From positions 16,292 to 80,291 of the IMG/VR virus record IMGVR_UViG_3300033475_000012: 64,000 nt of DNA, one strand, 5' to 3'. Shown here in pieces: positions 15,253 to 60,411 of this stretch. Source of the stretch: a virus (Duplodnaviria; Caudoviricetes). Numbering within the stretch: position 1 is the first letter of the stretch; the number at the start of each line of letters is the position of its first letter. The notes under the pieces were generated by a model. That model searched no databases. It had not been told where the DNA came from and worked only from the letters and a program-made list of their open reading frames with translations. A program made the translations under genes and the position numbers.

Positions 15253-15253
15253 T

Positions 15254-16496: not shown

Positions 16497-16508
16497 TTGA
16501 TCAATTTG

Positions 16509-35373: not shown

Positions 35374-36444
35374 TTATTCCGTATTTTTTACCGTAATTAT
35401 GTCAATGTCGTTCATGCAGTGAATCTTTCTTCCTTCTATGACTACATCGAAAATATCGAAATCATCGACGACGACAGTATCACCCGTTTTTGCTCCAACT
35501 TTTTCTTCCGATTCCTTGGATATTGCTAGTATCTTCCGTTCGAAAATCTTCAACGTTTCGCTATATAAAATGCCACCAGCAGACACACGTTGTACGGTAT
35601 TTGATTCATGGACAAGGAATACATAGGGGTCAAAGCTGATCACTTCATTGTCCCGAACAACTCCGTATACTGAGGTTAATGTTTCGTAGTCTCCCTGAAC
35701 GGAAACCAACATATCTTTTGGGCATAGTCGTTGTCCGAATGATTGTTTTGTAGGGTTTTCTTCGGTAGACCTATTGGCTCTGACCCATTCGTCTTGCCCG
35801 ACATAACTCGTTACAGCCACAACGGTAACCAATTTATCTTCTCCATCATAACCAACGATGATTGTTTCGTCGTTGTCCACCAGATAATCCAAAATAGCGA
35901 CATCTCCCACTTGTGCGTGATGAATGTTTTCTCCGACGAATACAACTTCCCCAGTAGACACAAACCTAGCATTATGATCGGTATCATCGCTCGTTGTGGG
36001 ATTATACATGAAAAGATCGGTTACTGTTCCGTCATCACGGATAATCTTTTTGGTAAATAAAGACTCCCTCGCCTCTTTACTTATCTTCACAATAACGTGG
36101 TTGGGATGGCAAATCAACTTACCCTCGACTTCTTTACAAAGAACGTCATCTTCAGTAACCATTACACAATCCATCCCATCGTACACGAATTTCTTTTGTT
36201 CTGTGTTCTTTTTGTATATAACCGCATCGCCTTCTTTAAAGAACGAGCATTTTTTACCAGAGGCCAATATCTTTCCCCGGTTCTGCTTTTTCTTGTACAA
36301 AATATCTGAAGCTAAAACTTCATCTTGCCCCCACTGATAAAGATTAAAATTACTTCTCAATACCACTAGCCCTGAAGGTCTTTGCTCTTCAGTAACTATA
36401 TCTTCTACTGCTATTAACACTAAATTTCTGAGTGGTTGAAACAT
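35374..36444 (-). CDS. co-chaperonin with three tandem GroES-like domains (356 aa)
   Basis: Domain 1 QPLRNLVLI...SGLVV...RGKILASG...GDAVIY...VMVTEDDVL; domain 2 HPNHVIVK...TGEVVFVG...VGDVAI; domain 3 DPYVFL...SAGGILY...KILAI...GDTVVV...CMNDIDII. Confidence 0.8.
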   Translation of the reverse strand: MFQPLRNLVLIAVEDIVTEEQRPSGLVVLRSNFNLYQWGQDEVLASDILYKKKQNRGKILASGKKCSFFKEGDAVIYKKNTEQKKFVYDGMDCVMVTEDDVLCKEVEGKLICHPNHVIVKISKEARESLFTKKIIRDDGTVTDLFMYNPTTSDDTDHNARFVSTGEVVFVGENIHHAQVGDVAILDYLVDNDETIIVGYDGEDKLVTVVAVTSYVGQDEWVRANRSTEENPTKQSFGQRLCPKDMLVSVQGDYETLTSVYGVVRDNEVISFDPYVFLVHESNTVQRVSAGGILYSETLKIFERKILAISKESEEKVGAKTGDTVVVDDFDIFDVVIEGRKIHCMNDIDIITVKNTE

Positions 36445-36454
36445 AAAAATTATT

Positions 36455-38479
36455 TTAACGTCTTGGTGGAGTTATTTCCCATATTCTTGCCATGTAACTT
36501 CTAACATGGTCGTCTGTCACGTTTGTTCGCTTGGCTTGTTTCAACGCATATTCAAGCATAATTTCAGACATCGTTACGTCAAATGCTGTTGTATTTGCCA
36601 TGTCAAAGTTCTCCAAATCAATTAGGCCGTCTTCAAAAGGATAACAGGCAATATGATCTTTTTCATCAATGGTTTTGGGAGCCCGGTATCTTGTCTGTAG
36701 CATCTCCACTCCATTCTTTACTATCTTACCAGTACTATCAGTCCATATACCACACCCTCCATCTTTTTCATTATTCATTAGGAATCTTCCCATCCCTACC
36801 TCTTCAAACATTTCTTTTACACTTTCCACTTGCCGTTCGTGCATTAATGAACAACCAAAAAACTTACATGCTTTAGTCGCCTCTCGATGCACATCTTTAG
36901 GGTCGTCCATACGACCAAGAAATAGAGCGGCCTTTTCATCCTCCAAGAAATCTTCACTATCTGGCTTGTTAAAATAATCAAATCTTTTATGAATGATGAT
37001 AGATGCTCTTGAAAAGTTAGAACTTTTTATATCTTCTTTTCGATATCGCACAGGGTCATACCCTCCATAAAACTCAGGATTGATAGGCGGAATGACTTGG
37101 CCATTATCGGTTACAAAGAACCGATTGCTGGCATCTATTTTACGGTCAATAGAAATAAAAGGAAGCAACGAAATTAGCCATAAGCCAGACGGATCTTGTT
37201 CGAAGACGATGCGCCCAGATGACCCCTCATTCAATACGCCCCTTACATATGGCTTATCGTCGTATGCCTTGCCCTCTAATTCTTTTCTTCTAGAAACCAA
37301 CCGTATTTTGTCGAAATACGACGCTTCTGACGCGCTAATAAGGGCCTCATCCTCAGTCAATGGCAATTTTCTTTTCTCGTAGTAATATTCCTTTGTTCCC
37401 TTTGTTTTTTTATTAATCTCGTTTTCTATCCACTCTTCGTTTCTAGCTTCATCAATTTCTCCGTATTTGTCTGGCAATAACTCAATGGGCAGGTATTGGC
37501 TCCATAGGCTACTAACAAATCGTTTCACAAAACCGCTAATCGTTGTTTTCTTCCCTGGCAACAAGGAAGATTCCCCAGCCATCTTTATCCACTCTTTCGT
37601 AGATTGTATAACTGAATCCGAGTCGCCGGTAGTGGACAGAGCAGACAGTTTACCGCGACGGCCGGCATTACGAATAGTCTTTCTGTTTACCTCGATGGTC
37701 TGCCGGGGATTGGCATCAGTAGGATGTTTAGAAACCTCATCAACAGTTACCTTCATCTTTTCGGTTCCGTCCATCGCTTTTTCCTCAGTAGGATATACAT
37801 AGACCCGGCCGCCGAGCCAAGGTTCGCCCTCCGAGTCATCTTTGTTATTGACTAATTCTAGCGAATTACGCGGGCGCTTCCCATTACTCTTATAGTAATT
37901 CTCCCGCATCCAAAAAGGACGACTGAAATAGGCTTCGAGAAGGGGGAACAGAAGGGTCTTTTTAGCCTTGTCCATTGTGTCGGACTGAAGGCCGATATTG
38001 TTATTGAAGTCAGAAAGGAGTACGTAAATATTCTCCGTTGTCTCTTCCGTGCTCATCCCATAGCGTCGCGGCTTGATCCACATCGGGCCATCTATCTCGT
38101 CTTGTTCTGGCTGCCAATACCAATCTCGAAAGTAAAAATCCTCTCTTTGTGAACGATTATGCCGGAGAAAGCGGTTGTTGTATTTATTGAAAACCAAATG
38201 ATCAACATTCATCCCTGTGAGATAAGTTGGGACTCCGTTATTCATAAAATACATACCATTCAGCCACCGATAGCGCCATTTTTCTATGTATTCAATCCTG
38301 TCTTTCTCCGACATCCGACGAACATCTCTAATGTCTAACTCGAAAGTAAGATCGGCAGGCGTCCGCCAATACTGATCCTCTTTTTTTAGATTATAATACA
38401 AAATCTCCCGCTCCGGAGGAAGGGGCGGGAGTTTATATATAATTCCCTGCTTGGCATCAAGAGTTATTATCTGACCCAT
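36455..38479 (-). CDS. terL: terminase large subunit
   Basis: Walker A-like KPRRYGMST, Walker B VTVDEVSK, RuvC-like nuclease GGYDP; start MGQ (38479) or 38488. Confidence 0.9.
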   Translation of the reverse strand: MGQIITLDAKQGIIYKLPPLPPEREILYYNLKKEDQYWRTPADLTFELDIRDVRRMSEKDRIEYIEKWRYRWLNGMYFMNNGVPTYLTGMNVDHLVFNKYNNRFLRHNRSQREDFYFRDWYWQPEQDEIDGPMWIKPRRYGMSTEETTENIYVLLSDFNNNIGLQSDTMDKAKKTLLFPLLEAYFSRPFWMRENYYKSNGKRPRNSLELVNNKDDSEGEPWLGGRVYVYPTEEKAMDGTEKMKVTVDEVSKHPTDANPRQTIEVNRKTIRNAGRRGKLSALSTTGDSDSVIQSTKEWIKMAGESSLLPGKKTTISGFVKRFVSSLWSQYLPIELLPDKYGEIDEARNEEWIENEINKKTKGTKEYYYEKRKLPLTEDEALISASEASYFDKIRLVSRRKELEGKAYDDKPYVRGVLNEGSSGRIVFEQDPSGLWLISLLPFISIDRKIDASNRFFVTDNGQVIPPINPEFYGGYDPVRYRKEDIKSSNFSRASIIIHKRFDYFNKPDSEDFLEDEKAALFLGRMDDPKDVHREATKACKFFGCSLMHERQVESVKEMFEEVGMGRFLMNNEKDGGCGIWTDSTGKIVKNGVEMLQTRYRAPKTIDEKDHIACYPFEDGLIDLENFDMANTTAFDVTMSEIMLEYALKQAKRTNVTDDHVRSYMARIWEITPPRR

Positions 38480-39113
38480 CCTCAACAAATTTAAAGGAAT
38501 AGCCGCCTGTATGATGCCTCACTCCATAGCAGACTTTACTTATATTTTGAAAACTCAAATTTAGTTCTCTTCCAGCCTCAGCAACCGACCCATACATAAT
38601 TCCATTTGTAATACATAACACTTTTTTAGAACAAGGGCTTTGGTCTCCCGTCTTGCCCTTTCCGGGATGCCGTCGGCCAAGAACTCGCCAAGCATGTAAA
38701 TGTTGTTCGCGGTGAGTGTTCCATTCAAGTTGAGAGGCCCTATTATCCCATTTTATACCCCATTTATGATTGACCGTTCTTTTTTTTAAAGGATTGGGTA
38801 TAAAATGAAGTCCCACAAGAATTTGAACATATTTCAATGACGTTTTACCCTCTCGATTTAGGCCCACACAAAGATAGCCCCGTTCATCTCTTGGGCGAGG
38901 AGGGAGAATTGTTTCTTTTATTTTTTGATAAGACCTCCCATTCCATTTTTCCCTCTCCAAAGACTTAATCCGACCCATATTACTTACCTCATATACTCCT
39001 TCATAGCCGGCAATTGGCCTCCATATTTCGCCTTCAAGGTCAAAAAGAGAAAAATTTTTATAATGTTCTGGTATTCCTTCTTTTATGGTAGATATAGCGT
39101 ATTCTTGACTCAT
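38457..39113 (-). mobile_element. NUMOD4-HNH homing endonuclease
   Basis: EIWRPIAGYEGVYEVSNMGRIKS; VNHKWGIKWDNRASQLEW; C-terminal HTH; overlaps the terL start. Confidence 0.9.
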
Positions 39114-39143
39114 TTTCACTTTTTAGTCATTCAGGCTCCAAAT

Positions 39144-39195
39144 ATGCGCATTTTTTGTGATTATGCGTATGCGTATTAGTAAAAATCGTGCGCAT
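39144..39195. promoter_or_regulatory. cluster of TGCG-core palindromes/repeats overlapping a -7-like box; putative operator for the late operon
   Basis: ATGCGCAT 39144-51, TATGCGTATGCGTAT 39162-76, GTGCGCAT 39188-95; minus-strand CATATTTG overlaps the first palindrome. Confidence 0.4.
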
Positions 39196-39214
39196 CAAAA
39201 GGGCCCCGAAATAT

Positions 39215-40009
39215 TTAACAGTCAATCGCGTACTTTTTCAGGATTTGACTTAGTGCATCTTTGCCCAATGCCGTAATTTGCATCTTTGCGCCCCTCCCCT
39301 CGCCAATTTTACTGATATATCTTTTAGCCTGAAGTGTCCCGAAGGCGTTCTTTATCTTCCTAGTGCTTGACTGATAGGTTCTTTTGAATTTCTCCTTGTA
39401 GATAAAAGCAGTATTCTTGGCCTCCCCGTCAAAAAGAGATAAGAGAACATAAAATTCAGGGATAGTCACCCCGGTATTTACCGTCATTGTTTTACGGTTG
39501 GTCTCCCAGAAGGTCAGGAAACGGACGATATAGGCCAATTCCTTTTGGGATTGATCCACCTTATTGGGGGGGACGTTTTTGTTACGTAAAAGGTAGTTAT
39601 AAGCCGGGGAGGTAGATAAAAAGTTGAGGTAATGGAAGGCGTTCACAAGCTCTTTATTTGCCAAAACCATTCGGTCTGCGACTAGTAGCTGTTCGGCAGA
39701 TTGCAGGGAATAATCCCGTTCAGGAGCCTTGGAAATAAGTGCCTGAAATTGTTCGACGCCTATGCCCTCTTGCTCATCTTCTATAACCAAAAAAAAGCGC
39801 TTTTTGAGCGCCCGTAGTAAAACAAACATTTTGGACAGAAACGACAGTCGGCTGGTTGATTTGGCATCCCATTCCCCTCCTTTTCGGAATAGCTTAAAGG
39901 CTATATCCCTTGGGAGGTCTATTTTAGCTTGCTCTGTTATCCCCTCTATCTGTCGGGCGAAATACAGATCCAAACTTTCGCAAGATATGTCAAGAATAGT
40001 TTTTTGCAC
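39215..40009 (-). CDS. transcription regulator with a C-terminal MarR-like winged helix (264 aa)
   Basis: TIPEFYVLLSL...IKNAFGTLQAKRYISK...MQITALGKDAL. Confidence 0.65.
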   Translation of the reverse strand: MQKTILDISCESLDLYFARQIEGITEQAKIDLPRDIAFKLFRKGGEWDAKSTSRLSFLSKMFVLLRALKKRFFLVIEDEQEGIGVEQFQALISKAPERDYSLQSAEQLLVADRMVLANKELVNAFHYLNFLSTSPAYNYLLRNKNVPPNKVDQSQKELAYIVRFLTFWETNRKTMTVNTGVTIPEFYVLLSLFDGEAKNTAFIYKEKFKRTYQSSTRKIKNAFGTLQAKRYISKIGEGRGAKMQITALGKDALSQILKKYAIDC

Positions 40010-40736
40010 TATGTCTTTTGTTTTCAGTTTTATAGATAGGCGAAAAAACCTTCCCGGTAATTTTACTCCATTTTCTGCCTGTTTTTATTTGCCCTATTAA
40101 ATGGATATTAACGCCATATTTTTGTGAAATGTCTTTATAGCTCATATTGGCGTTAAAAATAGTCAAAACCATTTCTTCAGACAAGTACTTAACGTCTTTT
40201 TTGATGTACTTAGCACCTGTGACGCGATGCCAAATTTTCCCAATCTTAATATTGGAAATGTTTTGCTCAGTCGTATGATAAATAACCGATAATTCTGTTG
40301 GAGTTAATTCAGAATGATATATCTCAATGACTTGTGTTTTAGTGAGTTTAGAATCTCGATGGGTATGCCCGACCAATGAAGTCAATCCATTATCCAAAGC
40401 ATGAATAGTGTTTTCTGAATAAGTAACCCATTCTATATTGGAGACACGATTATCACTGGGAATGGCGTTTATATGATTAACGCAGGGCTTGTTTAATGGA
40501 TTGGGGATAAAAGTATTAGCTACAAGCCGGTGAACCTGCTCGCTCTTTGTTGTGCTCACCCACACACGGATATATCCCGGCTTGTTCTTTCTGCCCAACA
40601 ATATTCTTCCTTTGACTGGCTTTTTCGCCCCTCTTTTTGTAATCAATACTCTATCTATGCTCCTAATACGACCCATATTGGAACATTGAAGCCTATCCTC
40701 ATACCCTTTGCACGGAAGCCAAATCTCATTATCCAT
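39990..40736 (-). mobile_element. NUMOD4-HNH homing endonuclease
   Basis: EIWLPCKGYE...SNMGRIRS; VHRLVA...VNHINAIPSDNRVSNIEW. Confidence 0.9.
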
Positions 40737-40947
40737 TATATTCAGGATTAGGTATTTGTTTTAATACTTTGCCGCCATGTGGACAACCACAGTTTTCTAC
40801 GACAAATAGAAACCGACCGCAATCACATTGCGAATTATCATATTTTAAGTCGTTGGCCAGCGGCATGTACCCGTCCACCCCATGAAACTCAAGGCACTTT
40901 CTTTTGGCCGGTTGTTCAGTTTGCTGCTGGTTGTTGGCCCAATTCAT
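40729..40947 (-). CDS. small Cys-rich (Zn-binding?) protein (72 aa)
   Basis: CDCG...CGCPH; overlaps both neighbours. Confidence 0.45.
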   Translation of the reverse strand: MNWANNQQQTEQPAKRKCLEFHGVDGYMPLANDLKYDNSQCDCGRFLFVVENCGCPHGGKVLKQIPNPEYNG

Positions 40948-41938
40948 TTTTTCTTGTTTGAATAAAGTTAAGGATATTTTCCAATCTTACGCGCCAGGAG
41001 TGGTGTTTTAAGACCCATTCCCGGCCAACCTTAGCCAGTTCTTCCCGTTCTGCATCGTTTTTCAAGAGTCGGTCAATCTCCGTTTTTAGCATATCAAAGT
41101 CCAACCAAGTCTTTATTACGTTCTTATTGAAGTCTTGGTTTATGCCGTAGTAGTATTGGGAGATAGTCGCGCAACCGCAGCCCATGGCTCTCCAAATTCG
41201 GTCTGAAGTATATCCCCGGCGATTGAACTGGTTTTGAGTAATGGCTATTTTTGCAGTATTGTAAATGGCTATTTCATCATTCTTTTCTGCAATTCGGGAA
41301 TGTCCGCCCCAGCCCATGCCGTAAACAGCGAACCTATTCCCGTATTCATTTCTCAAAAAATCAACCATTTCTACCCGTTGTTGAGCCAAAGGAAATTCAT
41401 CTTTCAGAGAGGATGTAGTATAATTTCCGCCAATGAATACTATTTCAGGAAATGGGAACACCTTCTTTTCATCTCCTATTTTATAGGAGGTTATCAACTC
41501 AGGCTGAGGCGAATAAACATCATAATCGGCTGCACTATTCGACCACATTACGTTATTGAATCCGGCCCTCTTTAACTCGTCTACCGTTTCCATATCTCCT
41601 ACCACAACTAATCCTAAATGCGGTGCTAAGTCTTTTATCCATCCTATGTCCTGTCTAACGTCGAACGAAAAAAGAACCGTGAATGTTTTTTCGGGAAGCG
41701 AATGTAATAAGTCAGCGTCTAAATTTCCGCCAGATTGAACATGGAGAAATAACAAATCCGGCTCTTCCATATGCGCCTTTGCAATAAGCCTTTCCCACAT
41801 GCCTATGATTCCTTCATTTGCTTTTACGGACTGCCAATTAAAGACACTCACCTCTTCAAATAGTTCTTTCATGGCATTGGTGATGCCGGAAGATCTATAA
41901 GAAGGGCTTTCGATAGCGCAGTGCAGTATTGACTTCAT
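40916..41938 (-). CDS. glycosyltransferase, CgeB/Glyco_trans_1_2-like (GT-B, 340 aa)
   Basis: VFIGGN, FAVYGMGW, IYNTAKIAI...SDRIWRAMGCGC, ELAKVGREWVLKHHSWRVR. Confidence 0.85.
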   Translation of the reverse strand: MKSILHCAIESPSYRSSGITNAMKELFEEVSVFNWQSVKANEGIIGMWERLIAKAHMEEPDLLFLHVQSGGNLDADLLHSLPEKTFTVLFSFDVRQDIGWIKDLAPHLGLVVVGDMETVDELKRAGFNNVMWSNSAADYDVYSPQPELITSYKIGDEKKVFPFPEIVFIGGNYTTSSLKDEFPLAQQRVEMVDFLRNEYGNRFAVYGMGWGGHSRIAEKNDEIAIYNTAKIAITQNQFNRRGYTSDRIWRAMGCGCATISQYYYGINQDFNKNVIKTWLDFDMLKTEIDRLLKNDAEREELAKVGREWVLKHHSWRVRLENILNFIQTRKNELGQQPAAN

Positions 41939-41942
41939 GTTA

Positions 41943-42803
41943 TTAATAATTTAACCATGCTAATGGGTCTGGCTTGGCGATCTTATTTAATATTATTTCT
42001 CTGTTCTTTTCAAAGGTATAGTATTCCTTAAATATTTCAGCACCTCGTTCTTGCTTTTTGATTATTTCGGCATGGGATATAGAATGAAGTATTTGTTCAA
42101 GCCTTGGTAATTCTTCCTCTTTAACCAATACCCCGTATTCATTGAAGTCTATCCAATGAGGTTGGACGTGAGTATCCGACAAATATACCGGAATGCTACC
42201 GTATTCTAGGGCCTCCAATATACGAAAGGAGCTGGCCCCGCACCCACGGGGGCATATTGTATAAGTCGATTTTGCAAGGATTTGACAGAAGTCTCTAAGC
42301 GGGTGTTGAGCCTCGGATACATAAATACTACGGCCGCTGAAATCTCTCAAAAGCCGCTGGCGAATCGGATGAGTGTTACGCCCGATAAAATTAGCAAAAA
42401 GGCTTTTCTGGATACCGACCTTAAAATTATGCGGCGCACACAATAATGGCAACGGATAGTCTATTCTGCCTCCACTCATCCCAAAACATAATATATCCAA
42501 ATCTTTGAAATCGACCATAGGCCCTAAGTCGAATTGATGAATACAGTAATACTTCTTTGAACGATCCAAGGTGTCAACAAAGTCTTGGAGCCTTTTTACG
42601 GCCGCCTTATCCTCCCCAAATTTATGTGTAACTAAATAGCCGTTAAAGAAAATGGGCAAATATTCCCGTTCCGTCTCCCCTGGCATGTACGGGTAATTGT
42701 CATAGAACCACTCTTCAAAGTTGATTTTATTATCCGAAGGATAAGGAAAACTTTGACGAATCCTAAACTCAGGTGGTACTCCGTAATGTGATTTCCAGTT
42801 CAT
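41943..42803 (-). CDS. exostosin-family (GT47-like) glycosyltransferase (286 aa)
   Basis: STYTICPRGCGASSFRILEALEYGSIPVYLSD plus the following PHW-x-I-D pattern. Confidence 0.85.
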   Translation of the reverse strand: MNWKSHYGVPPEFRIRQSFPYPSDNKINFEEWFYDNYPYMPGETEREYLPIFFNGYLVTHKFGEDKAAVKRLQDFVDTLDRSKKYYCIHQFDLGPMVDFKDLDILCFGMSGGRIDYPLPLLCAPHNFKVGIQKSLFANFIGRNTHPIRQRLLRDFSGRSIYVSEAQHPLRDFCQILAKSTYTICPRGCGASSFRILEALEYGSIPVYLSDTHVQPHWIDFNEYGVLVKEEELPRLEQILHSISHAEIIKKQERGAEIFKEYYTFEKNREIILNKIAKPDPLAWLNY

Positions 42804-43969
42804 TTATATTTCCATTTAAATCCGTACGCTGTTTTCTTAACCCCAGAACACACCCTTACTATGCAAGACGTATCTGATCGCCCAAAAGACAGAGCCGCAT
42901 CTAATGCAGAATCCCAATCTTTAATAAATTCGTTTTCTTTTGAAAATTGTTGTATCGGCCTTTTGTGCCCGTATCTTGGTGACATATTCAGTGTAGACTC
43001 GTCTTCCAAATATTTCCAAAAAAATCCACCGGCGGTTCTGCCCTTTTTCTTACAACAATCTTTTATGTGGCTAGGGCATAATGACAAACAATCAGCGGCT
43101 ATTTTTATACTATCAAAAGACCTTACAAAATCACCAGACATGGAAAATTGACTGACCCTTCTATAGTTTGATGTTTTCTTCCTTTTAAATTGTACGCTTT
43201 CACTCGGGGAAGAACCGGAATACGCCCAGAAAAAACCGCCTACTGATTTTTGCCTATTATTACAACATCGACTAATACTTCCGGCGTTTATATTTAAAGA
43301 CCTCGCTGCATCAATCATGGAATCCCATTTCTTAATAAAAATTAGCCCAATGCCGAACTGATAAACGGACTTAGAATATGGGTTTAGATGTCCCAACCTA
43401 CCAACAGACATCTTTTTATAAAAGATGGGGTTACCCCAATTTTTCTTAGAAACCACGGAACAACCCATCCGCCTTTCACTGGTAAATACTTGTGGCTTTC
43501 TAACCAGAGCGTCCATGACTTTTCTTTTCTTATCAGACCATCCAACACCCCTTCGCATAGAGGAAAAGAGAGCTTTTGTTTCATCGGAATGCTTTCGACC
43601 AAACCAAGGATTTAAAACACCTATTTTGCCCTTCATGTGTCTGCCCATCTTAGCCCTGCTTTCATCAGACATTTTTGACCCAAGTCTACCGCCATTCATC
43701 AAGTTTAATCCGACAGAAGAATTAAAGGAGTTGTATTTGTCTATATAATATGTCTCGTAATAATTTAAAGAATCCTCGCTACAATAAATCAACACTTCAA
43801 ACAAATGTGCATCCCACCCGTATTTTTTTATAGAATTATACAGCTTGGGTTGACTTTTACACTGGACATTGGCATAGTTTCTTTTCCGTTTAGCTAGATT
43901 AATTGATTGACCAATATATATTCGTCCAGAGGGAGATGTTATTTTATATATTCCGATGAGCCTATTCAT
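42800..43969 (-). mobile_element. GIY-YIG homing endonuclease with NUMOD3/NUMOD1 repeats
   Basis: GIYKITSPSGRIYIGQS; three C-terminal NUMOD1-type repeats (QFS..G.FI..WDS..DAA...I..CC). Confidence 0.9.
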
Positions 43970-44600
43970 TGCTCAAATGTTTTCTAACATAAAAAGCGTC
44001 CGTCCACGCATCGCCAACCCAAGGGCCAGTTTCAACTCTTTCGAAATCAGAAAGAATCGTATCTATTTCTTCTACAAGAGCGTTCCCAGAATAAACAGAT
44101 TTTTTATTTATCTCGGTATAAACCCAATTTATTTGTCTAAGAGTTTTTAAACCGCCCGACAAGACTCTGTTTTCATATCCCTGACAATCCAAGACAAGGA
44201 GGTCATATCCCTTGTTTATTAATCCAAGATTATCAAGAATATCAACATCTACCAATTCTTCATCAGTAAATTTTACCGAATCGTGAAGAATAAGATGTAG
44301 GTCTGGGCGAAGAATACTATTCGATTGCCCGTGGTTGACTGTATTATCCCCGGTATACATCGTCACATCCACTTGCGATTTGTCGCCGCAAGCCAGATTA
44401 AACAATTTGATATTCTCCATTCCAAAGAACTTCTTATGAAGAACACCGAAGGCTGCCGCACAGGGCTCGATAAGCGCCATTCGTTTTATACCTACCGCCA
44501 CATAATCGTCGTACTCTTCACAAAAGTGAGCGCCGCAAACGATTACTCCATTTGCATTGATGTTATACTTTTTTACAAGTTCTTTGAAGTTAAGGAGCAT
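43962..44600 (-). CDS. FkbM-family SAM methyltransferase (212 aa)
   Basis: VIVCGAH, LIEP, LVLDCQGYE, YTEIN, WTDAFY. Confidence 0.85.
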   Translation of the reverse strand: MLLNFKELVKKYNINANGVIVCGAHFCEEYDDYVAVGIKRMALIEPCAAAFGVLHKKFFGMENIKLFNLACGDKSQVDVTMYTGDNTVNHGQSNSILRPDLHLILHDSVKFTDEELVDVDILDNLGLINKGYDLLVLDCQGYENRVLSGGLKTLRQINWVYTEINKKSVYSGNALVEEIDTILSDFERVETGPWVGDAWTDAFYVRKHLSNE

Positions 44601-44601
44601 C

Positions 44602-45249
44602 TTACTTTCTTTTTATAACGATTAGTTTTTCATACGCACATATCTCTACTGAGTCAATTAGTTTTTTGAATATGGCTGAATCTTCAGAAGTAAAGTACGG
44701 ATTTACTATCTCTCCTGTTTTTAAAAATTCTTTGAACATATGCAAGGGGGTGTCTTCAAACCTATGCACCAATCCGCCCCAATAAAAGGAGTCCAAATTG
44801 CAGTGGCAGTCTTCAATATAATAGATTCCGCCTTCGGTCATTTTACCCCAAAATATCTCTTTGAAGGAAACAATCTGATGATGTGCGTTATGACTACCAT
44901 CATCCACAGCCACTTCGTATTTGCCGGGAAGCGATCGAAGTAGATTGACGTCTGATTGATCCCCTTGTATAGGGTAGAATCCTTGGTTCCGACACCATCG
45001 TGCGCTAACAAACTCAGGATTCATGAACAAATCCAAACAATGAATATCCACCTCATTTGCGCCGAAAATGTCATTCCATATTTTCAGCGATTGCCCTCTG
45101 GCAACGCCTATTTCCAACAAAGTCCGACACGACTCGGGTAGTGTTCTGGAATAAACCTCCCAATACCCATGCTCTCCTTTGTCGGTATTAAGCCATCGAT
45201 TTAGAAAACCAAAACGAGCAAGCCTTATTTCCTGTATAGTCTTATCCAT
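44602..45249 (-). CDS. class I SAM-dependent (sugar O-)methyltransferase (215 aa)
   Basis: TDK...HGY...Y, LLEIGV, GDQSD, VDDGSH, GGIYYIED. Confidence 0.85.
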   Translation of the reverse strand: MDKTIQEIRLARFGFLNRWLNTDKGEHGYWEVYSRTLPESCRTLLEIGVARGQSLKIWNDIFGANEVDIHCLDLFMNPEFVSARWCRNQGFYPIQGDQSDVNLLRSLPGKYEVAVDDGSHNAHHQIVSFKEIFWGKMTEGGIYYIEDCHCNLDSFYWGGLVHRFEDTPLHMFKEFLKTGEIVNPYFTSEDSAIFKKLIDSVEICAYEKLIVIKRK

Positions 45250-45252
45250 AGG

Positions 45253-46071
45253 TTAGTATTTTATTCTATGCCATCGAGGAGGCATAATATCCATGGTAGC
45301 CAATGCCGAATTATCGGGTCCAAAGTAATTGTCTTCATGCGGACAAACCACCATAATTGAATGTCTATTTAAGATGCCAGCCAAAACAGAAAAGCTACTA
45401 TTAGATGTTACCAAAAAAGGACAGTTGCACATGGCTATAAAATCATCTTGCGTAGTCCCTATTGAAAATGAAAATTGATCTTCAGAACTAATAAAATATT
45501 TTTTCACAAATCCTCTACAGTATGGAATGTCGTCTGAACAAAACATGAATTTGGGAAGTCTCACCCATGAAGATGTGAAATTATTTTGAATAAAATGAAT
45601 GGCAGATAGCAAATATTCATCTGTAACGACCGGATGTTTTGTTGAATATTGTAAGTAATCGCCCCTTCTGACATGAATAATAACCATCTCTGTGTTATAC
45701 TCAGCATTATGATAGCCTATTGATAAGTTAAATTCATTTATAAGATTAGACTGCCACCCATCAATATACCGCCAACTTTGAAAGTATCCTGTCCTAATAT
45801 CCTTTGTCCCGATCATTATGTTTTTATCTCTCCACTCTTCTTTGAAAGGCAGTTCGACGAATGAGTGCCGCCCATCATTTACTTCAACTATTTCAAGATC
45901 GGGATTCCAATTTGGATTTTGTAAGTGCTGGTGATAAGTCGGCCAAACTGATGGGGCTAGCGATTCTTTTGGCGCGCAATACTCTAATCCATGCTTTTTA
46001 GCATAAACCCACCCCGTCATTTGCTGCCAAGTCGAGTTGGCGAAACGCCCTTTCGTAAATACGCTTACCAT
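45253..46071 (-). CDS. alpha-1,2-fucosyltransferase-like glycosyltransferase (GT11)
   Basis: KGRFANSTWQ, GYFQSWRY, IHVRRGDY, FCSDD, NSSFS; start ATG at 46071 in a TAATG overlap with the endonuclease stop. Confidence 0.9.
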   Translation of the reverse strand: MVSVFTKGRFANSTWQQMTGWVYAKKHGLEYCAPKESLAPSVWPTYHQHLQNPNWNPDLEIVEVNDGRHSFVELPFKEEWRDKNIMIGTKDIRTGYFQSWRYIDGWQSNLINEFNLSIGYHNAEYNTEMVIIHVRRGDYLQYSTKHPVVTDEYLLSAIHFIQNNFTSSWVRLPKFMFCSDDIPYCRGFVKKYFISSEDQFSFSIGTTQDDFIAMCNCPFLVTSNSSFSVLAGILNRHSIMVVCPHEDNYFGPDNSALATMDIMPPRWHRIKY

Positions 46072-46802
46072 TACGCTTTGGTCCAATTTTTATAAGTCAT
46101 CCCTAGTACTATTTTATTTACTGCGGCCCTTCCGATGTTCATATCTTTTGCAATTATAAATTGTGGCACTCCACTTTTATATTTTTTCATCACTTTTTTC
46201 ACTTGAGATTCTTTAAGTTTAAGATTGTTTTTGGCTTCCCTCCATTCATGGCCAAGATTTTTGGTCATAAAACCCCAAGTCCTCCCACCTCTAACGTTAT
46301 TTATGCAGCTTATGGTTACTCCATACTTTTTTGCCAATTCACGTTCGGTATACTCCCCAGTAGAGTATAATTTAAGCATTTCGACGACTTGTTGCTCGCT
46401 TAATTTAGCACCGGGGCCTTTTTCACCTAAATGACACTGTAATCCAGTAGCTATGGCATGTCTTTGGTTTTCCAGCTTAGTGGCCCATTCAAGATTAACA
46501 GCCCTGTTGTCCCATTTTATTCCATTTTTGTGATTAATTTGAGACTTTTTACTAGGGTTCGGTTTAAAAGCTTTTCCAACCAGCCTATGAACAAGACGCC
46601 CATGCTCCTTTTTGTCTTTAAATAAAGAAACTCTTACGTAATCGTCTTTGCTTGGTTTTAGCTTAAGATGTATCCCCTTTTTAATATATCTGCCCCCATA
46701 TGGAAGATACCCAATAAATCTATCCAATGACCTAACTCGACCCAGATTACTTATTTCGTAATACCCAGTAAACCCCCATATTGGTTTCCAAATTTCTTTC
46801 AT
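46071..46802 (-). mobile_element. NUMOD4-HNH homing endonuclease
   Basis: EIWKPIWGF...YEISNLGRVRS; VHRLVG...INHKNGIKWDNRAVNLEW. Confidence 0.9.
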
Positions 46803-47506
46803 AGTTCAATAATCATCTTTTCTATCTCAGAAACTTTTTTCATATTTTCATTGAGGTCTTTTAGGAAGCCAGATTCCGAATGTTGGAGGTGATCATATTG
46901 CATTCCCGGAACGACATATAGACTACCCCCGGCTTTTAACCATAGATAGTTGAAGAATATAGTATCCGAAGCTAGGATTGACGGATCGTGTCGATATACC
47001 TTGCAATAAGCCTCACGCGGCACTACATAGTTGGCGGTGTTACACATACAGCGAAACATGGGGTTATCCATAAATCCTTTAGCATTCTCTTTCGTAAAGG
47101 ACATGCTGGCAAACTCTCTGTAATCGAAGGACGGGCGCGCCCATTCTGGACAGAAAATCGTTCCGCTCATTGCGTCTGGTTCGGCCCCATTCAATTCGGC
47201 GTATAAAGCATCAAGGTAGCCGGGCGAAAAGGTGTTATCTGAATCCCATAGACAAACAAGCGGCATTGTACAGTGAGCCACTGCATCTGCCTTGTTTTTT
47301 GACATATTCACGTTCTTGTACTGCTGAAAAAGAACCACCTTATCGTTATTCCGATAATAGTTACTTAATCGATGAAAGGAACCGTCTGTAGAGGCATCAT
47401 CTGCGATAATGATACTGTTTACTCGTTCATCATTCAACACCTGTTCGATGGCGTTTTTTGTCATCGACTCACGATTATACGTAGTTATTGCAATGTCAAT
47501 TTTCAT
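46799..47506 (-). CDS. family 2 glycosyltransferase (235 aa)
   Basis: IAITTYNR, IIIADDASTD, LWDSD (DxD). Confidence 0.9.
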   Translation of the reverse strand: MKIDIAITTYNRESMTKNAIEQVLNDERVNSIIIADDASTDGSFHRLSNYYRNNDKVVLFQQYKNVNMSKNKADAVAHCTMPLVCLWDSDNTFSPGYLDALYAELNGAEPDAMSGTIFCPEWARPSFDYREFASMSFTKENAKGFMDNPMFRCMCNTANYVVPREAYCKVYRHDPSILASDTIFFNYLWLKAGGSLYVVPGMQYDHLQHSESGFLKDLNENMKKVSEIEKMIIEL

Positions 47507-47517
47507 ACAAAAAAGTT

Positions 47518-47639
47518 ACCGGAGGGTGCATCCAACGGTATCTCGTCCGGCCTGACGGCCTTTAGTGAAGTGTTGTCCCTCCGGTATCCTTATCGTTAAA
47601 AACTAATGCCTCTGTTTTTAACGAGATATCTTTGGATGC
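47518..47639. ncRNA. candidate structured RNA element in the only sizeable gap of the glycan operon
   Basis: 19-bp stem 47528-46/47621-39; 9-bp stem 47518-26/47577-85 crossing it; hairpins at 47549-60 and 47594-623. No family recognised. Confidence 0.4.
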
Positions 47640-47643
47640 GGGA

Positions 47644-48288
47644 CTAAGGTACAATCTTAGAGTTATTCTGCAAATTTAATTTTTGGGTATGTTTTTTAAA
47701 GGCTCCTTCGATGTAATACCCCCAGTCTTTGAACCCTCCTTCTGTTAAACTGATCCCTGGATACTGACTAGCCAACTGGGGGTAGGCATGAAAGCATTTA
47801 CCATGTGGTTCTATCTCACGCATCCACAAACTATCTATAGGGATACTTTCTGGCAATTCCAACGCTCTTTGCATAAACTCCCGGCTGTACATGGCTGCAT
47901 GGAGCCCGTAGGAGCCTTCGATTCGGAATAGGTTAGGCGTTATCAGATGCTCCACCGGTCGGATCAATACAGACCCTAATTTTATCTGCCACCAATCTAT
48001 TTCACGGGATTGACGGACTATTTCTTCCATGTAAGCATTGAATTCATCCGGAGGAACTAAGAACTTAACATCGTCCTCAAAAATGAGACATCTGGATAAC
48101 CATTGGGCTTGTTTAAAAAGATAAATAAACGATGTCCTTACTCCTTTCTTTCCGTCTATATCTTTTGTCCCGCCCCACCATTGAAAGTTTATGCCATACT
48201 TTCTGAAGTCGTCTATCACCCGCTGCTTTCTTTCGACATCGCCAATGGTTATCACATATATCTTATCAAAGTAGTTCCGCCAGGACAT
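47644..48288 (-). CDS. family 25-like glycosyltransferase (214 aa)
   Basis: FDKIYVI...ER, LIFEDD, YGLHAAMYS, PID. Confidence 0.8.
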   Translation of the reverse strand: MSWRNYFDKIYVITIGDVERKQRVIDDFRKYGINFQWWGGTKDIDGKKGVRTSFIYLFKQAQWLSRCLIFEDDVKFLVPPDEFNAYMEEIVRQSREIDWWQIKLGSVLIRPVEHLITPNLFRIEGSYGLHAAMYSREFMQRALELPESIPIDSLWMREIEPHGKCFHAYPQLASQYPGISLTEGGFKDWGYYIEGAFKKHTQKLNLQNNSKIVP

Positions 48289-50355: not shown

Positions 50356-52251
50356 TTAAAATGGATCATCGGTTACATCATCACCATCTTTGTATGGAAA
50401 CCACAAGTCAGGATTGTCATTCATTCTCTTTTCCATACCGGCAGCTAAAGTTGGATCGCACGGCATTTCACCAGACAACGGATCGGCATACCTTTTTTTT
50501 GCCCAATTCAAAACTAGTGGGAAGTCCCCCAACCTGCCCCCAGTCCTTTTCCGCTTTAACTTCTGAATATAAACCTGGACATGAGGATCGTTTTTGTCAA
50601 CATGAAAATTTGGTCGATAGTAGGAAACAATATTATCCATCTTGTTACCCCATGCGGCCCCCCCAGCAATGTCGTACATATCAACTACCGGTAGGGACTT
50701 ATCTTGGTTATAAGAAGGATTTTTAGGATGAGCGATGATGTTATAGCAAACATTGTTCAGTAAGGCAAATCGCTTCAAGTCTTTAAACACATCTGACAAG
50801 TATTGGTCTTCCCGTTGATATGCTTTTTGATTATGGTCAAGCTGGTTAAATGGGTCTATCATAACACCATCTAATCCTTTTTTGAGAACCAGATGACGAA
50901 ATCTCTCGTTGATTGAATTGACGTCATGGTCATTATCTGGATAAACGTAAAATATGTGCCGGGATATAAAATCACAACCTTCTGTGTATTCAGCCTCAGT
51001 CATATCCCTGAGCCACTTACCGACGTACATTTCAACCAAGTCGTCGTAAAAATCATTGGCAGGATAATTTTCAGGACTAAATATAGCCCATCGCCACCCA
51101 TCCCATATACTCTTTGTAAGCATCAACTGAAGAGCAAAAAAAGTCTTTCCGTGATTCCCATATCCCACAAACAAATTTAACTCACCTTTCTTCCATCTAA
51201 AGAAATCGTCCATATCCCTAAATCGAGTCGTAGGAGCCAACTGAACACCGTTTCGAAAGTTTTCCAGCATAGACGGGAAAATGTCTTCGAGATAGTATAT
51301 TCCATCGACAGGGATGGACTGTGCGTTTTTAACGACATTGATAACTGCTTCTGCCCCTAAATACATCAACACTTCGTTAAAATCTTTGCACCTACGTTTT
51401 AATCCGTTTTCAAGTGGGACAACTTCTTCCATAGGATAGTTGACGGTATAGCAACGTTCAACTCCCAAACGACGGATCAGTTCGTCTCGCAATGCTAAAC
51501 CCGCCGAGTCTGCATCTGTAGCAACCACAATCTCGTGAAATCCCATAAACCAATCTGAGCAATTATCTAAATATTCCAACTGCTGATTACCCTTACTCGC
51601 TCCGTTAGGAACTGAAAGCACCACCCATTTCGATAATTCTTCAGGAATAGCCTCGCCTATACCAAAATCAACTTCCTTCCCGAAACCAACTTCATACACA
51701 CTTAAACAATCAATCTCTCCTTCGACTATGATGCAATGTTTTTTTTCCCCAACAGTTTGAAGGTTGTAAAAAATCAATTCAGCACCTTTCGTCATCTTAA
51801 ACCCTTTCCTGGCATCCCGATACTTTATGTTTACCAAGTCCCCATCTCTGAAATAAGGGAAACAAATACAAGTTCCTTTCTTTTGCGTTTGCGGCATCCA
51901 CTCCTCTCGACCAAATATCATAAATTTATCCAGAGTCGATTTTGATATTCCTCTCTTTTTAAAGTAAGCAACTATTTTTTCGTTTAACTCAATAGACCTC
52001 AAAATATCTGCCGGAGGCCGTTCGTATTTCTTTTCCTCACGCTTTCGATCCAACGTACGCACATTGCCTTTCCATCCACAATTGTGGCAATTAAATTCAC
52101 CGGTAGTGATATTCACCGACAAAGGTTTGTCTGTCTTATTTTTTCGACCATCAGAACACTGAGGGCATTTCGTTTTTTCGCTGCCGCCGCGTCGAGTAAG
52201 TTTTATACCGAGATCAGAAAGTTTGTCGTAGTACATAATTTTAGCTTTCAA
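50356..52251 (-). CDS. bifunctional primase-helicase (Zn finger + TOPRIM + DnaB/T7 gp4-like helicase, 631 aa)
   Basis: CPQC...CHNC Zn finger; EGEIDCLS and ATDAD TOPRIM motifs; Walker A GYGNHGKT; IDPFN, IAHP. Confidence 0.92.
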   Translation of the reverse strand: MKAKIMYYDKLSDLGIKLTRRGGSEKTKCPQCSDGRKNKTDKPLSVNITTGEFNCHNCGWKGNVRTLDRKREEKKYERPPADILRSIELNEKIVAYFKKRGISKSTLDKFMIFGREEWMPQTQKKGTCICFPYFRDGDLVNIKYRDARKGFKMTKGAELIFYNLQTVGEKKHCIIVEGEIDCLSVYEVGFGKEVDFGIGEAIPEELSKWVVLSVPNGASKGNQQLEYLDNCSDWFMGFHEIVVATDADSAGLALRDELIRRLGVERCYTVNYPMEEVVPLENGLKRRCKDFNEVLMYLGAEAVINVVKNAQSIPVDGIYYLEDIFPSMLENFRNGVQLAPTTRFRDMDDFFRWKKGELNLFVGYGNHGKTFFALQLMLTKSIWDGWRWAIFSPENYPANDFYDDLVEMYVGKWLRDMTEAEYTEGCDFISRHIFYVYPDNDHDVNSINERFRHLVLKKGLDGVMIDPFNQLDHNQKAYQREDQYLSDVFKDLKRFALLNNVCYNIIAHPKNPSYNQDKSLPVVDMYDIAGGAAWGNKMDNIVSYYRPNFHVDKNDPHVQVYIQKLKRKRTGGRLGDFPLVLNWAKKRYADPLSGEMPCDPTLAAGMEKRMNDNPDLWFPYKDGDDVTDDPF

Positions 52252-56839: not shown

Positions 56840-58573
56840 ATGAAACAATCCATTAAAATCCTATTAGCTGCTGTTTTTGCTATTGGATGTGGTACTACAG
56901 GGCAAGTTTCGTGTCCGCCACCGACTACGATTACTTTATTTGACACTATACACGAAACAAAATATACCATCGTTGATAGTCCAGTATATGTGAATAGGGT
57001 GATTGACTCACCAGTTTATATTTTTCAGGACACGCCGATTTTGGTCAATACGGTTATAGATACGAATAATCCAATTAGTGTAATGACGGTCACGCCAAAT
57101 TTATCTGGAAACGATTATCCTACAGTTCAGGCGGCCTTAAATTATCAAGCTCAACACCCTGGTACTGTTTTAAAGTTTTTTGCCACAGATTATTATTTTA
57201 ATCATTCTTTGTTATTTGCCAATATGGTAAATAGAGACTATCAGCAAGTACAATTGGATATAGAAGGGCCTGTCTCTGCGTGGAATTCTCCTAGATGCAC
57301 TATTTTTCACTTCAGAAATACAACTGATTTTGGATTGGCGGTGCAAAAATGTAAAGGGTGTTCAATCAAAAACATTTACTTCGCCGGAGCTTATTCATTT
57401 CCGAACACCTTGAATGCCGTTCAAATAGATACTTTGCTTTTTTCTCAATGGCCAGAACCACTTGGTTCAACAAGAAGTAATCCTTATGCAGCGATAGTCA
57501 TTGACCCATTTAGCGATCCCGCTTATTATACAGCAAATCCTGGAGATAGTATGTACTCAAGTTATATGCCTTACTATATATCAGGAATGTCGAGAGGAGG
57601 TTCGACAGCAATAGATATAGAAGGATGCCGGATTAGTAATTTTGTAGTGGGAACTATGATTACGCCTTCTTTCCAGCAAAATGGAGAAATGATCAATCTC
57701 TTAAAGTGTCGTATCGATAACTGCAAGGTGGCCTATGCCTATACCCAAGACCAAAGTAAAACGAATACGATTTATAATTTAATGAGCTGGGGAAATTGCA
57801 ATACTATAATCGACGGGAATGATTATGGGCATCTCCATATAACTCCTAGTACTGCACCAATGGTAGATGTGATGAATATAGCTGGGAATAATCATCAATT
57901 GTTCAATATAAACGCGGCCACTTTTCCAATTAGCATGAAGCGTATATACGCTGAAGGATTATTTAAATTGGGGATTGCCATGGGAGTTGCAGGCATTCAT
58001 CTGGACGATTTTCAAATAGATTTCCAAAACAATAATCCAGGCGTCCCATCGCCTGACTGTTACTACTATGGGATGAATACAACTTTTACCGGATGCCAAT
58101 TTAGAATATATGGAAGTGAACCACAACGACGGATTATATTGAATTTCCCGGCAAATCAATATATAGGTGGTTCATTGGGGGCATCCCCATTAGTAAATCC
58201 TGTTCAAAAAGTAAGCGGTAGCTATGCGACAAATCCTTTATTAATACAAGGAGCTACATTGTATTACACGGGCCTTCTATTGAATGATAATACTTATGAC
58301 AGCGTCGGATCGGCAATTACTACCACAATTCATGTTAATGCAGATTTTTCCGGATGGTATTTAGGAACGGGGAAAGAAAGCAAAAACGATTTGATAACAG
58401 ATAATAGTGGGATATTTTTCATGGAGAATCTGTTTCCTTCCATACATTCCGCGGCATATCCAATCGGGTTCGTTACTTCTGTCAGTAACGATACTGTTTG
58501 GCTTTCGAATGTAGGTTGGGGAATACGCGATGGACAAATTATTCATGCATGGGATAATAAAATAAGAAATTAA
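56840..58573 (+). CDS. lipoprotein with a pectate-lyase-like right-handed beta-helix (577 aa)
   Basis: Lipobox MKQSIKILLAAVFAIG-C; DYPTVQAALN...FFATDYYF as in Pectate_lyase_3 N-termini; repeated xIxNCxI/NxF coils. Confidence 0.75.
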   Translation: MKQSIKILLAAVFAIGCGTTGQVSCPPPTTITLFDTIHETKYTIVDSPVYVNRVIDSPVYIFQDTPILVNTVIDTNNPISVMTVTPNLSGNDYPTVQAALNYQAQHPGTVLKFFATDYYFNHSLLFANMVNRDYQQVQLDIEGPVSAWNSPRCTIFHFRNTTDFGLAVQKCKGCSIKNIYFAGAYSFPNTLNAVQIDTLLFSQWPEPLGSTRSNPYAAIVIDPFSDPAYYTANPGDSMYSSYMPYYISGMSRGGSTAIDIEGCRISNFVVGTMITPSFQQNGEMINLLKCRIDNCKVAYAYTQDQSKTNTIYNLMSWGNCNTIIDGNDYGHLHITPSTAPMVDVMNIAGNNHQLFNINAATFPISMKRIYAEGLFKLGIAMGVAGIHLDDFQIDFQNNNPGVPSPDCYYYGMNTTFTGCQFRIYGSEPQRRIILNFPANQYIGGSLGASPLVNPVQKVSGSYATNPLLIQGATLYYTGLLLNDNTYDSVGSAITTTIHVNADFSGWYLGTGKESKNDLITDNSGIFFMENLFPSIHSAAYPIGFVTSVSNDTVWLSNVGWGIRDGQIIHAWDNKIRN

Positions 58574-60018: not shown

Positions 60019-60411
60019 TTATTTTTTAAGTGAAAACAACTGTACGTCATATCCTGCTCTTAAATCTTTTACCCATATACTAGGCTTTGTAGGAGATGTA
60101 GAGTCTAGGTAGATTATGGGACGTTTTTCAAGTTCTTGAATTCTTCTTTGGAGGGAGTCTAGGCGGCGGTTTAATGAATCGATATTATAAGCCAGCGTCA
60201 ATATTTTATAATCAGAAAACCATGGTGCGTAATTTGTCCATCCGTCTGGGCCTAATAAGTCAATGTTTGTAGAGTCGCGTACCATTTTTCCATGTACTGT
60301 ACGGTACATAACGGGCTTTCCAATCATGCCTGAACGAAGGGCTGAATCCTGCCCCTTCCCTACCATAGCAGTAAAAAGTAAGGAGCATAGAAGAATAGGT
60401 AACTTGTTCAT
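60019..60411 (-). CDS. exported protein with a Sec signal peptide and coiled coil (130 aa)
   Basis: MNKLPILLCSLLFTAMVGKG|QDSA...; IDSLNRRLDSLQRRIQELE. Confidence 0.7.
   Translation of the reverse strand: MNKLPILLCSLLFTAMVGKGQDSALRSGMIGKPVMYRTVHGKMVRDSTNIDLLGPDGWTNYAPWFSDYKILTLAYNIDSLNRRLDSLQRRIQELEKRPIIYLDSTSPTKPSIWVKDLRAGYDVQLFSLKK

Follow-up and report, generated by a model that had tools for sequence, protein, structure and literature searches.

The stretch of viral DNA analyzed in this study (the window; 64,000 nucleotides (nt)) spans bases 16292-80291 of the 80,291-bp IMG/VR virus record IMGVR_UViG_3300033475_000012 and carries a minus-strand cassette of seven enzyme genes, five for glycosyltransferases (GTs) and two for methyltransferases (MTs). 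This cassette would act late in infection to build, in the cytoplasm, a methylated oligosaccharide of the fucose type on virion proteins, the presumed acceptor, and we assign this interpretation a probability of about 0.5. Virion proteins fit best because the cassette lies within the head module in related phages, the enzymes are soluble and acidic, mycobacteriophages provide a precedent, one of the methyltransferases is homologous to gp17 of mycobacteriophage Omega, and the last GT has an analogy in Bacillus subtilis CgeB. The record was rated 69% complete by CheckV, which estimated the size of the phage genome as ~115 kb.

An earlier reading of the sequence alone had described seven enzymes in one co-directional block at 40916-48288, located between replication and packaging genes. 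All seven were recovered at these positions on the minus strand, and the flanking genes proved to be a primase-helicase (50356-52251) and the large terminase TerL (36455-38488). Two homing-endonuclease genes inside the block (46071-46802 and 42800-43969) had been overlooked, so that it comprises nine tightly packed open reading frames (ORFs). Their junctions range from -32 to +4 nt throughout, except for a spacer between the first two enzyme genes. The features of the locus, in the direction of transcription, are as follows.

50356-52251, minus: primase-helicase (Toprim and DnaB_C/AAA_25), upstream of the cassette
47644-48288, minus: GT25-like GT-A glycosyltransferase, 214 amino acids (aa), first cassette gene (homologs, motif, fold model)
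47507-47643, minus: structured spacer, 137 nt, the only real gap in the block (folding)
46799-47506, minus: GT2 GT-A glycosyltransferase, 235 aa (PF00535)
46071-46802, minus: HNH/NUMOD4 homing endonuclease between GT2 and GT11 (PF07463, PF13392; phrog_59, E 4e-52)
45253-46071, minus: GT11 glycosyltransferase of the fucosyltransferase type, 272 aa (PF01531; phrog_2644)
44602-45249, minus: class I S-adenosylmethionine (SAM)-dependent O-methyltransferase, Methyltransf_24 / CmcI-TylF-like, hereafter MT24 (PF13578, phrog_21658)
43962-44600, minus: FkbM-family methyltransferase (PF05050)
42800-43969, minus: GIY-YIG/NUMOD homing endonuclease between FkbM and GT47 (PF01541, NUMOD1, NUMOD3, I-HmuI NUMOD-like; phrog_314, E 9e-29)
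41943-42803, minus: GT47 (exostosin)-like GT-B glycosyltransferase (PF03016, RXYLT1_C)
40916-41938, minus: CgeB/YkvP-like GT-B (GT4-fold) glycosyltransferase (PF13524)
40729-40947, minus: Cys-rich 72-aa ORF of uncertain cassette membership (ORF and sequence)
39990-40736 and 38457-39119: HNH genes just downstream of the cassette
36455-38488, minus: large terminase TerL, first late/packaging gene downstream of the cassette (phrog_6681, E 9e-31)

To place the cassette among other phages, the block was searched by megablast against 50,697 phage records, which gave no match, and a search for related loci with GT11 alone gave none either. Judged by these sequence searches, the cassette is carried by no cultured phage among the records covered. 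Among IMG/VR and metagenome contigs, the core order GT25, GT2, GT11, MT24, FkbM, GT47 recurs at 24-46% identity, and because this same gene order is shared by many unrelated contigs, the block lies far beyond chance. In 13 distinct viral or metagenome contigs the cassette is situated between TerL (phrog_6681, the same PHROG as that of the window) and the portal gene (phrog_6547), a placement that strengthens the earlier proposal that a position before the late genes fits virion glycosylation. Cassettes at this site usually add a short-chain dehydrogenase/reductase (SDR) and a second small GT25-like gene. The SDR is located next to GT11 and is Fcl-like, matching GDP-L-fucose synthase best, with a score under the equivalog cut-off. 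The cassette also occurs in another lineage (TerL phrog_2, TerS phrog_51), where a complete 54-kb genome has it immediately beside the terminase genes. Judged by TerL, the closest cultured phage is Flavobacterium phage elemoF, in which the portal gene directly follows TerL without a cassette. From this arrangement and the positions of the cassette in the relatives, it therefore behaves as a mobile module inserted in the head/packaging region.

In the window, the cassette is found just upstream of TerL and has no Fcl-like gene; its last member is the CgeB-like GT, and endonucleases have invaded it. The CgeB-like GT is specific to this clade of cassettes, with homologs of up to 62% identity on contigs of 50-88 kb; 52 homologs of the protein were collected, several of which are named CgeB by JGI. 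Among the closest relatives, GT47 homologs of 70-73% identity lie on contigs measuring 75.6 and 81.7 kb, and proteins identical to those of the window are encoded on a contig of 89.25 kb. With the GT47-like protein as a marker (E<=1e-30), 385 clusters at 90% identity and 133 at 50% identity were obtained, the top matches lying on contigs of no more than ~89 kb. Specific to the present phage are the family set GT25/GT11/GT47-FkbM/CgeB-like, the placement upstream of TerL, here in a larger phage, and the endonuclease invasion.

Family assignments were examined against the cut-offs of the respective models, and sequence profiles directly supported six of the seven. The CgeB-like protein (Glyco_trans_1_2, PF13524; 66.7 bits versus 25), GT2 (66.3 versus 23.3 bits for PF00535), the GT11 ORF at 45253-46086 (65.5 versus 23.9 bits for PF01531), the GT47-like protein (Exostosin_GT47, PF03016; 52.2 versus 33.4 bits, with only the C-terminal half of the model matched) and FkbM (35.1 versus 22.7 bits for PF05050) all scored above their Pfam thresholds. 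FkbM fell marginally below that of TIGR01444 (37.1 versus 37.7 bits). MT24 remained just under the PF13578 cut-off (24.7 versus 26.3 bits) and matched phrog_21658 with an E value of 1e-24; its orthologs in the relatives pass PF13578 and touch RMNT_CmcI. The GT25 call for the first gene fell short of the Pfam cut-off in the window (PF01755, E 0.011, 16 bits versus 24) and was upheld by other evidence. PF01755 is carried by five of six homologs of 50-59% identity, an EDD (DXD-type) motif is invariant in the GT25-like proteins, and the predicted fold is nearest to solved GT25 enzymes. The AlphaFold model was of moderate quality (pLDDT 65, pTM 0.68), and its top Foldseek matches were the bacterial beta-1,4-GalT 8xkd and human COLGALT1 9evj (prob 1.0, TM ~0.52).

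Catalytic motifs were found intact in the enzymes, which answers the concern of the sequence-only reading that catalytic residues might be degenerate. GT2 contains DDxS and DSDN (DXD) motifs that are invariant across its orthologs, the GT47-like protein keeps a conserved PRG...SFR...E motif, and MT24 shows LEIGxxxGxS (SAM motif I, ExGxxxG) and DDGSH. GT11 contains HVRRGDY (the HxRRxD GDP-fucose motif), SDD and SxSxFS. Its likely start is the ATG at 46071, giving 272 aa; the ORF reaches a TTG at 46086, and orthologs start at the MV... position. By family threshold and GDP-fucose motif, GT11 is of the alpha-1,2-fucosyltransferase type, with donor and linkage being predictions. Comparison with the PDB revealed matches of GT2 to the N-terminal halves of chondroitin synthase and GalT1, and of the GT47-like protein to the GT47 domains of EXT2 and EXT1 (for EXT2, E 1.8e-6 over residues 166-265). 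The nearest solved chains of MT24 are 3ssm and 8ia9 (demethylmacrocin O-methyltransferase; E 5e-6 to 5e-5), which we take to be MycE/TylE-type 6-deoxyhexose O-methyltransferases. For GT11, FkbM and the CgeB-like protein, the PDB contains no relative by sequence. The high-confidence structure model of the CgeB-like protein (pLDDT 91.8) displays a two-Rossmann GT-B fold, whose nearest PDB structures belong to GT4 (BA1558/BshA/MshA/PglA/SdgB). Furthermore, the seven enzymes have pI values of 5.0-7.7 and a maximal 19-residue Kyte-Doolittle score of <=1.32, and no signal peptide or hydrophobic segment was detected among them, in agreement with the earlier statement that membrane anchors are absent.

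Gene fusions in the relatives link the methyltransferases to the transferases. About one quarter of the top 150 GT47-like representatives are at least 450 aa long, the GT47 domain being C-terminal in nearly all of them, and precomputed Pfam matches identified the long representatives as FkbM-GT47 fusions. By the Rosetta-stone argument, these fusions suggest that FkbM methylates the product or the substrate of the GT47 step. FkbM is present in every cassette copy compared. Taken with the nearest solved chains of MT24, the fusions also support sugar O-methylation coupled to transfer. The enzymology proposed from the sequence alone is accordingly well supported, through the intact donor and catalytic motifs, HVRRGDY of GT11 in particular, the Fcl-like gene in the relatives, the probable sugar O-methyltransferase kinship of MT24 and the FkbM-GT47 fusions; the branching of the glycan in that proposal is conjecture. 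The fusions measure ~470-500 aa (homologs P0069-P0095 and others), and some representatives reach 700-950 aa. One relative encodes a fusion of FkbM with Methyltransf_24 (L002, 12094-13305). In another (L051, 8960-9616), the Fcl-like gene is replaced by that of a 218-aa 'sporadic carbohydrate cluster 2OG-Fe(II) oxygenase' (TIGR04324, E 3e-9, below the cut-off), which hints at hydroxylation of a sugar or of the acceptor in that version of the cassette.

In the pathway we propose, the cassette would be transcribed together with the late packaging and head genes, a timing suggested by its position. The five soluble GTs would draw on host nucleotide sugars and build a short oligosaccharide in the cytoplasm. 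By analogy with B. subtilis CgeB, the most plausible initiating protein O-GT is the CgeB-like enzyme, which would attach the first sugar to Ser/Thr of a virion protein; in the relatives, the second GT25-like protein perhaps performs this step. The GT25-like, GT2 and GT47-like enzymes would then lengthen the chain, and GT11 would add a fucose-type 6-deoxyhexose from a host GDP-sugar, the supply of which the Fcl-like enzyme may boost in the relatives. MT24 and FkbM would O-methylate sugar hydroxyls, FkbM in concert with GT47. In the end, methylated glycan would coat the particle, a situation like that of mycobacteriophages Che8 and Corndog.

To our knowledge, virion glycosylation has been shown experimentally among phages only in a few mycobacteriophages, where antibody recognition was affected. 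In this group, GT/MT cassettes in head modules are already established by experiment. Cluster O mycobacteriophages have an O-methyltransferase gene and three GT genes between portal and protease (PMC4351075), and according to two papers that summarise Freeman 2023, phage GTs modify capsid and tail-tube subunits (PMC12619734, PMC10877033). The cassettes of Corndog (Cluster O, gp35-38), Che8 (Cluster F) and Omega (Cluster J, gp16-17) resemble the present one in combining soluble GTs with an O-methyltransferase in or near the head-packaging genes. MT24 is 28-35% identical to Omega gp17 and Wildcat gp11 (33.6% for Omega gp17), and Omega gp17 comes right after the major head protein gp15 and the glycosyltransferase gp16. 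In contrast to the mycobacteriophage cassettes, the present one probably belongs to a phage of Bacteroidota, comprises a larger set (five GTs and two MTs) and has a putative acceptor; its GT11, GT47-like and CgeB-like enzymes are not detectably related to mycobacteriophage GTs.

Chloroviruses and giant viruses glycosylate their capsids or fibrils autonomously, and PBCV-1 A064R of a chlorovirus is a GT-GT-methyltransferase protein. Their cytoplasmic GTs are physically coupled to a sugar O-methyltransferase, comparable to the FkbM-GT47 fusions among the cassette relatives. Giant viruses also supply the nearest viral models of the CgeB-like GT (CgeB/YkvP-like domains in BFVD, TM up to 0.76), and the GT25-like model matches Mimivirus R655/R699. 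However, these are viruses of eukaryotes, and the likeness is at fold level only, with 9-18% identity. B. subtilis CgeB is a soluble, putative protein O-GT, proposed to act in the cytoplasm on the self-assembling spore-crust protein CgeA before elongation of the glycan (PMC13577073). A CgeB-type GT-B enzyme is common to both systems, here at family level only (PF13524). Nevertheless, the B. subtilis pair belongs to a cellular sporulation system, and a CgeA homolog is absent here.

Two proteins of the phage are candidate acceptors. The first, p482 (13804-15252), is a 482-aa protein of the structural module. Its tail is rich in Ser/Thr (12 of 20 residues at 459-478) and recalls the C-terminal glycan sites reported for capsid and tail-tube proteins of mycobacteriophages. 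The second, p329 (28238-29227), directly follows the putative major capsid protein (MCP; 29238-30704) and has no signal peptide. Counts of the Bacteroidota O-glycosylation sequon D-[ST]-[AILMTV] were compared with within-protein shuffles, and p329 contained six against 0.86 expected (P<0.0005). It has no family or PDB match, and its counterpart in the L135 group is without sequon enrichment. Collagen-like G-X-Y repeats, considered as a GT25/COLGALT-type acceptor, were absent.

Several points weigh against virion glycosylation. Bacterial GT2, GT11 and GT25 enzymes mostly act on lipid-linked glycans. GT2, GT11, the GT47-like and the CgeB-like enzymes have no detectable mycobacteriophage homolog, MT24 being the only exception among the enzymes searched. 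In the window itself, the cassette lies outside the head module, upstream of TerL at the junction of replication and packaging genes, and a terminator-like hairpin separates GT25 from the remainder. An attempt to locate an acceptor segment by aligning the putative MCP and scaffold of cassette-bearing and cassette-less phages was given up, as these were too divergent (14-19% identity). Moreover, adjacency to terminase genes has also been reported for DNA-modifying GTs (bioRxiv 10.1101/2023.12.21.572611).

As the main alternative, the soluble GTs and MTs may remodel intermediates of the host's undecaprenyl phosphate (Und-P)-linked O-glycan, lipopolysaccharide or capsule at the cytoplasmic face, leaving export to a host flippase and transferase. 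The altered glycan would end on the host surface, for exclusion or decoy avoidance, and possibly on the phage's own fibre-like proteins with signal peptides; we regard this as possible but less likely than virion glycosylation. GT2, GT11 and GT25 are typical of lipid-linked pathways, and in NCBIfam GT2 matches PglI and Eps enzymes best. In Bacteroidota, O-glycan assembly takes place on Und-P in the cytoplasm, and deoxyhexose and O-methyl groups are common in the product (PMC12871550). The general O-glycosylation loci of this phylum (LFG) are likewise rich in GTs and use nucleotide sugars at the cytoplasmic face to make O-methylated glycans that contain deoxyhexose. Yet LFG loci are chromosomal and begin with metG and the flippase gene wzx, whereas no flippase is present in the phage record, nor were a ligase/oligosaccharyltransferase and a priming phosphoglycosyltransferase found there. 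The earlier claim that nucleotide-sugar synthases, flippase and polymerase are missing holds for the 80.3-kb record (69% complete), which contains no PF01370 or PF00483 match and no large multi-transmembrane ORF; the phage could borrow flippase, polymerase or ligase components from the host. The acidic enzymes also lack membrane anchors, known seroconversion systems use membrane Gtr proteins, of which only a weak N-terminal GtrB-like PHROG match was seen here, and insertion at TerL/portal in a lytic-looking module would be an odd site for host-surface conversion. What makes this alternative testable is that the cassette co-occurs here with exported, sequon-rich fibre-like proteins. Three consecutive ones (574, 773 and 1184 aa; record positions 9832-17467, reaching window position 1176) have Sec-type signal peptides, as do two smaller proteins at window positions 56840-58573 and 60019-60411. 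Sequon counts in Sec-leader proteins reached 14 versus 3.7 and 6 versus 1.7 expected (both fibre-like) and 5 versus 0.5, whereas the MCP, the protein in the portal position and p482 contain no sequon. Two other cassette-bearing genomes repeat the pattern with similar large exported proteins (746 aa in G003 and 1205 aa in G004), and the cassette-less elemoF has no such protein. However, no large exported sequon-rich protein was found in three further cassette-bearing records (50-72% complete), and the exported proteins of the cassette-less phages Flavobacterium 11b and Bacteroides B40-8 are enriched as well. A correlation of the cassette with sequons and signal peptides, seen in three genomes versus one, was therefore lost when more genomes were added. 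Since cassette-less Bacteroidota phages are enriched too, the sequon marks the host phylum, not the cassette. The sequon signal, in line with the weak TerL link to Flavobacterium phages, suggests that the host is probably a member of Bacteroidota. We consider it unlikely that the cassette rewrites the host Und-linked O-glycan late in infection so that the Sec-exported, sequon-rich fibre-like proteins gain a methylated fucose-type glycan in the periplasm; if true, virion parts routed through the periplasm would be decorated by a general protein-glycosylation pathway of bacteria that the virus has hijacked.

Phage DNA as the acceptor has some precedent, in that phage GT-A and GT-B enzymes related to lipopolysaccharide and teichoic-acid GTs add mono- to trisaccharides to 5-hydroxymethylcytosine (5hmC), and their genes can neighbour terminase genes (bioRxiv 10.1101/2023.12.21.572611), as the cassette does in three lineages. 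The clusters for DNA sugar hypermodification combine a C5-methyltransferase/5mYOX or ThyS with such GTs, sometimes beside the terminase as here. A methylated oligosaccharide on hydroxymethyl-pyrimidines would evade restriction. However, these GTs need a ThyA-like hydroxymethylase, or a C5-methyltransferase with a TET/JBP dioxygenase (bioRxiv 10.1101/2023.12.21.572611), and enzymes producing 5hmC or 5-hydroxymethyluracil (5hmU) were not found in the record. None of ThyA-like hydroxymethylase, TET/JBP dioxygenase and C5-methyltransferase gave a match there, at 69% completeness and with a TET/JBP model lacking a positive control. ThyA-like and TET/JBP searches were also without a match in the records of five cassette-bearing relatives, one of them 92% and one 100% complete, the C5-methyltransferase search being confined to the window's record. 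Among the relatives' cassettes, the sole oxygenase seen belongs to the 'carbohydrate cluster 2OG-Fe(II)' type, and five GTs with two sugar O-methyltransferases exceed any DNA glycan in bioRxiv 10.1101/2023.12.21.572611. DNA glycosylation, an option that the checks proposed in the earlier reading had allowed for, is thus highly improbable, because ThyA-like and TET/JBP matches are absent from both the record and two near-complete relatives. It is also rather improbable that the cassette manipulates the physiology of the host through a free or other product, which might be a methylated oligosaccharide in soluble form, a glycolipid, or a small molecule or host protein that has been glycosylated. 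Relatives of the GT4 fold include small-molecule GTs (BshA, MshA) and a methylmannose-polysaccharide mannosyltransferase, and cyanophages have metabolic islands with GT11/GT25/GT47-like genes for which no target is known. Nevertheless, a free product has no phage precedent and no carrier or export gene, and a virion-linked role is favoured by the conserved location of the cassette in the head module.

The locus also harbours four homing-endonuclease genes (HNH, HNH, GIY-YIG and HNH) within 8.3 kb (38457-46802). All four are translationally coupled to their neighbours and have a GC content of 0.37-0.40, slightly lower than the 0.38-0.42 of TerL and most flanking cassette genes. The HNH gene at 46071-46802 shows stop/start overlaps on both sides (ATGA, TAATG) between GT2 and GT11, which are adjacent in the relatives. 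The GIY-YIG gene at 42800-43969 overlaps both neighbours and exactly separates FkbM and GT47, the pair that overlaps or forms one protein elsewhere. A relative (L140) likewise has endonucleases inside its cassette, at other junctions. These insertions between cassette genes suggest that co-infecting relatives share a cassette sufficiently conserved to serve as a homing target.

The 137-nt spacer at 47507-47643 (minus strand) is peculiar to the window, as GT25 and GT2 abut in the relatives. It folds into a terminator-like structure, in which a multiloop is closed by a GC-rich stem of 10 bp and a U-run follows (minimum free energy -42.7 kcal/mol, z -2.86 versus shuffles). The spacer could be a terminator or attenuator that splits GT25 from the other cassette genes. 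It has no match in Rfam, and the search over 36-53 kb returned only sub-threshold matches that were taken as chance, e.g. an S15 leader (26 versus 39.5 bits). A scan for sigma-70 promoters found fewer sites than in shuffles, the consensus being uninformative for Bacteroidota-type promoters.

The module is large and conserved across several lineages of uncultured, probably Bacteroidota, phages, where it is typically placed between terminase and portal. If virion proteins are indeed its target, one would expect glycan-coated particles to be common among Bacteroidota phages of aquatic and possibly gut-related origin. This would matter for adsorption, stability, immune recognition and phage therapy. 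For glycoengineering, the cassette would offer soluble GT/MT pairs (GT11, GT25, GT47-FkbM) in compact form.

Minor features were noted around the cassette and in distant phages. The 72-aa ORF at 40729-40947 has a zinc-ribbon-like CxC...CxC pattern, shares 32 nt with the end of the CgeB-like gene and has no Pfam or PHROG match. Downstream of the cassette, TerL is followed by a GroES-domain protein and by an 841-aa ORF in the portal position that has no family match. The former, a 356-aa protein encoded right after TerL (35374-36444), contains an N-terminal GroES/Cpn10-like domain (phrog_3188, E 6e-15); elemoF likewise has a GroES-like gene adjoining TerL, in addition to GroEL/GroES elsewhere. 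Among cultured cyanophages, the cyanosiphovirus Synechococcus phage S-SKS1 (L130; NC_020851, ~40-48 kb) carries a GT47-like gene of 29% identity, in the neighbourhood of two nucleotide-sugar epimerases, a fucosyltransferase and a phosphoheptose isomerase. In T4-like cyanophages such as S-SM2, GT11 and GT25 genes are adjacent.

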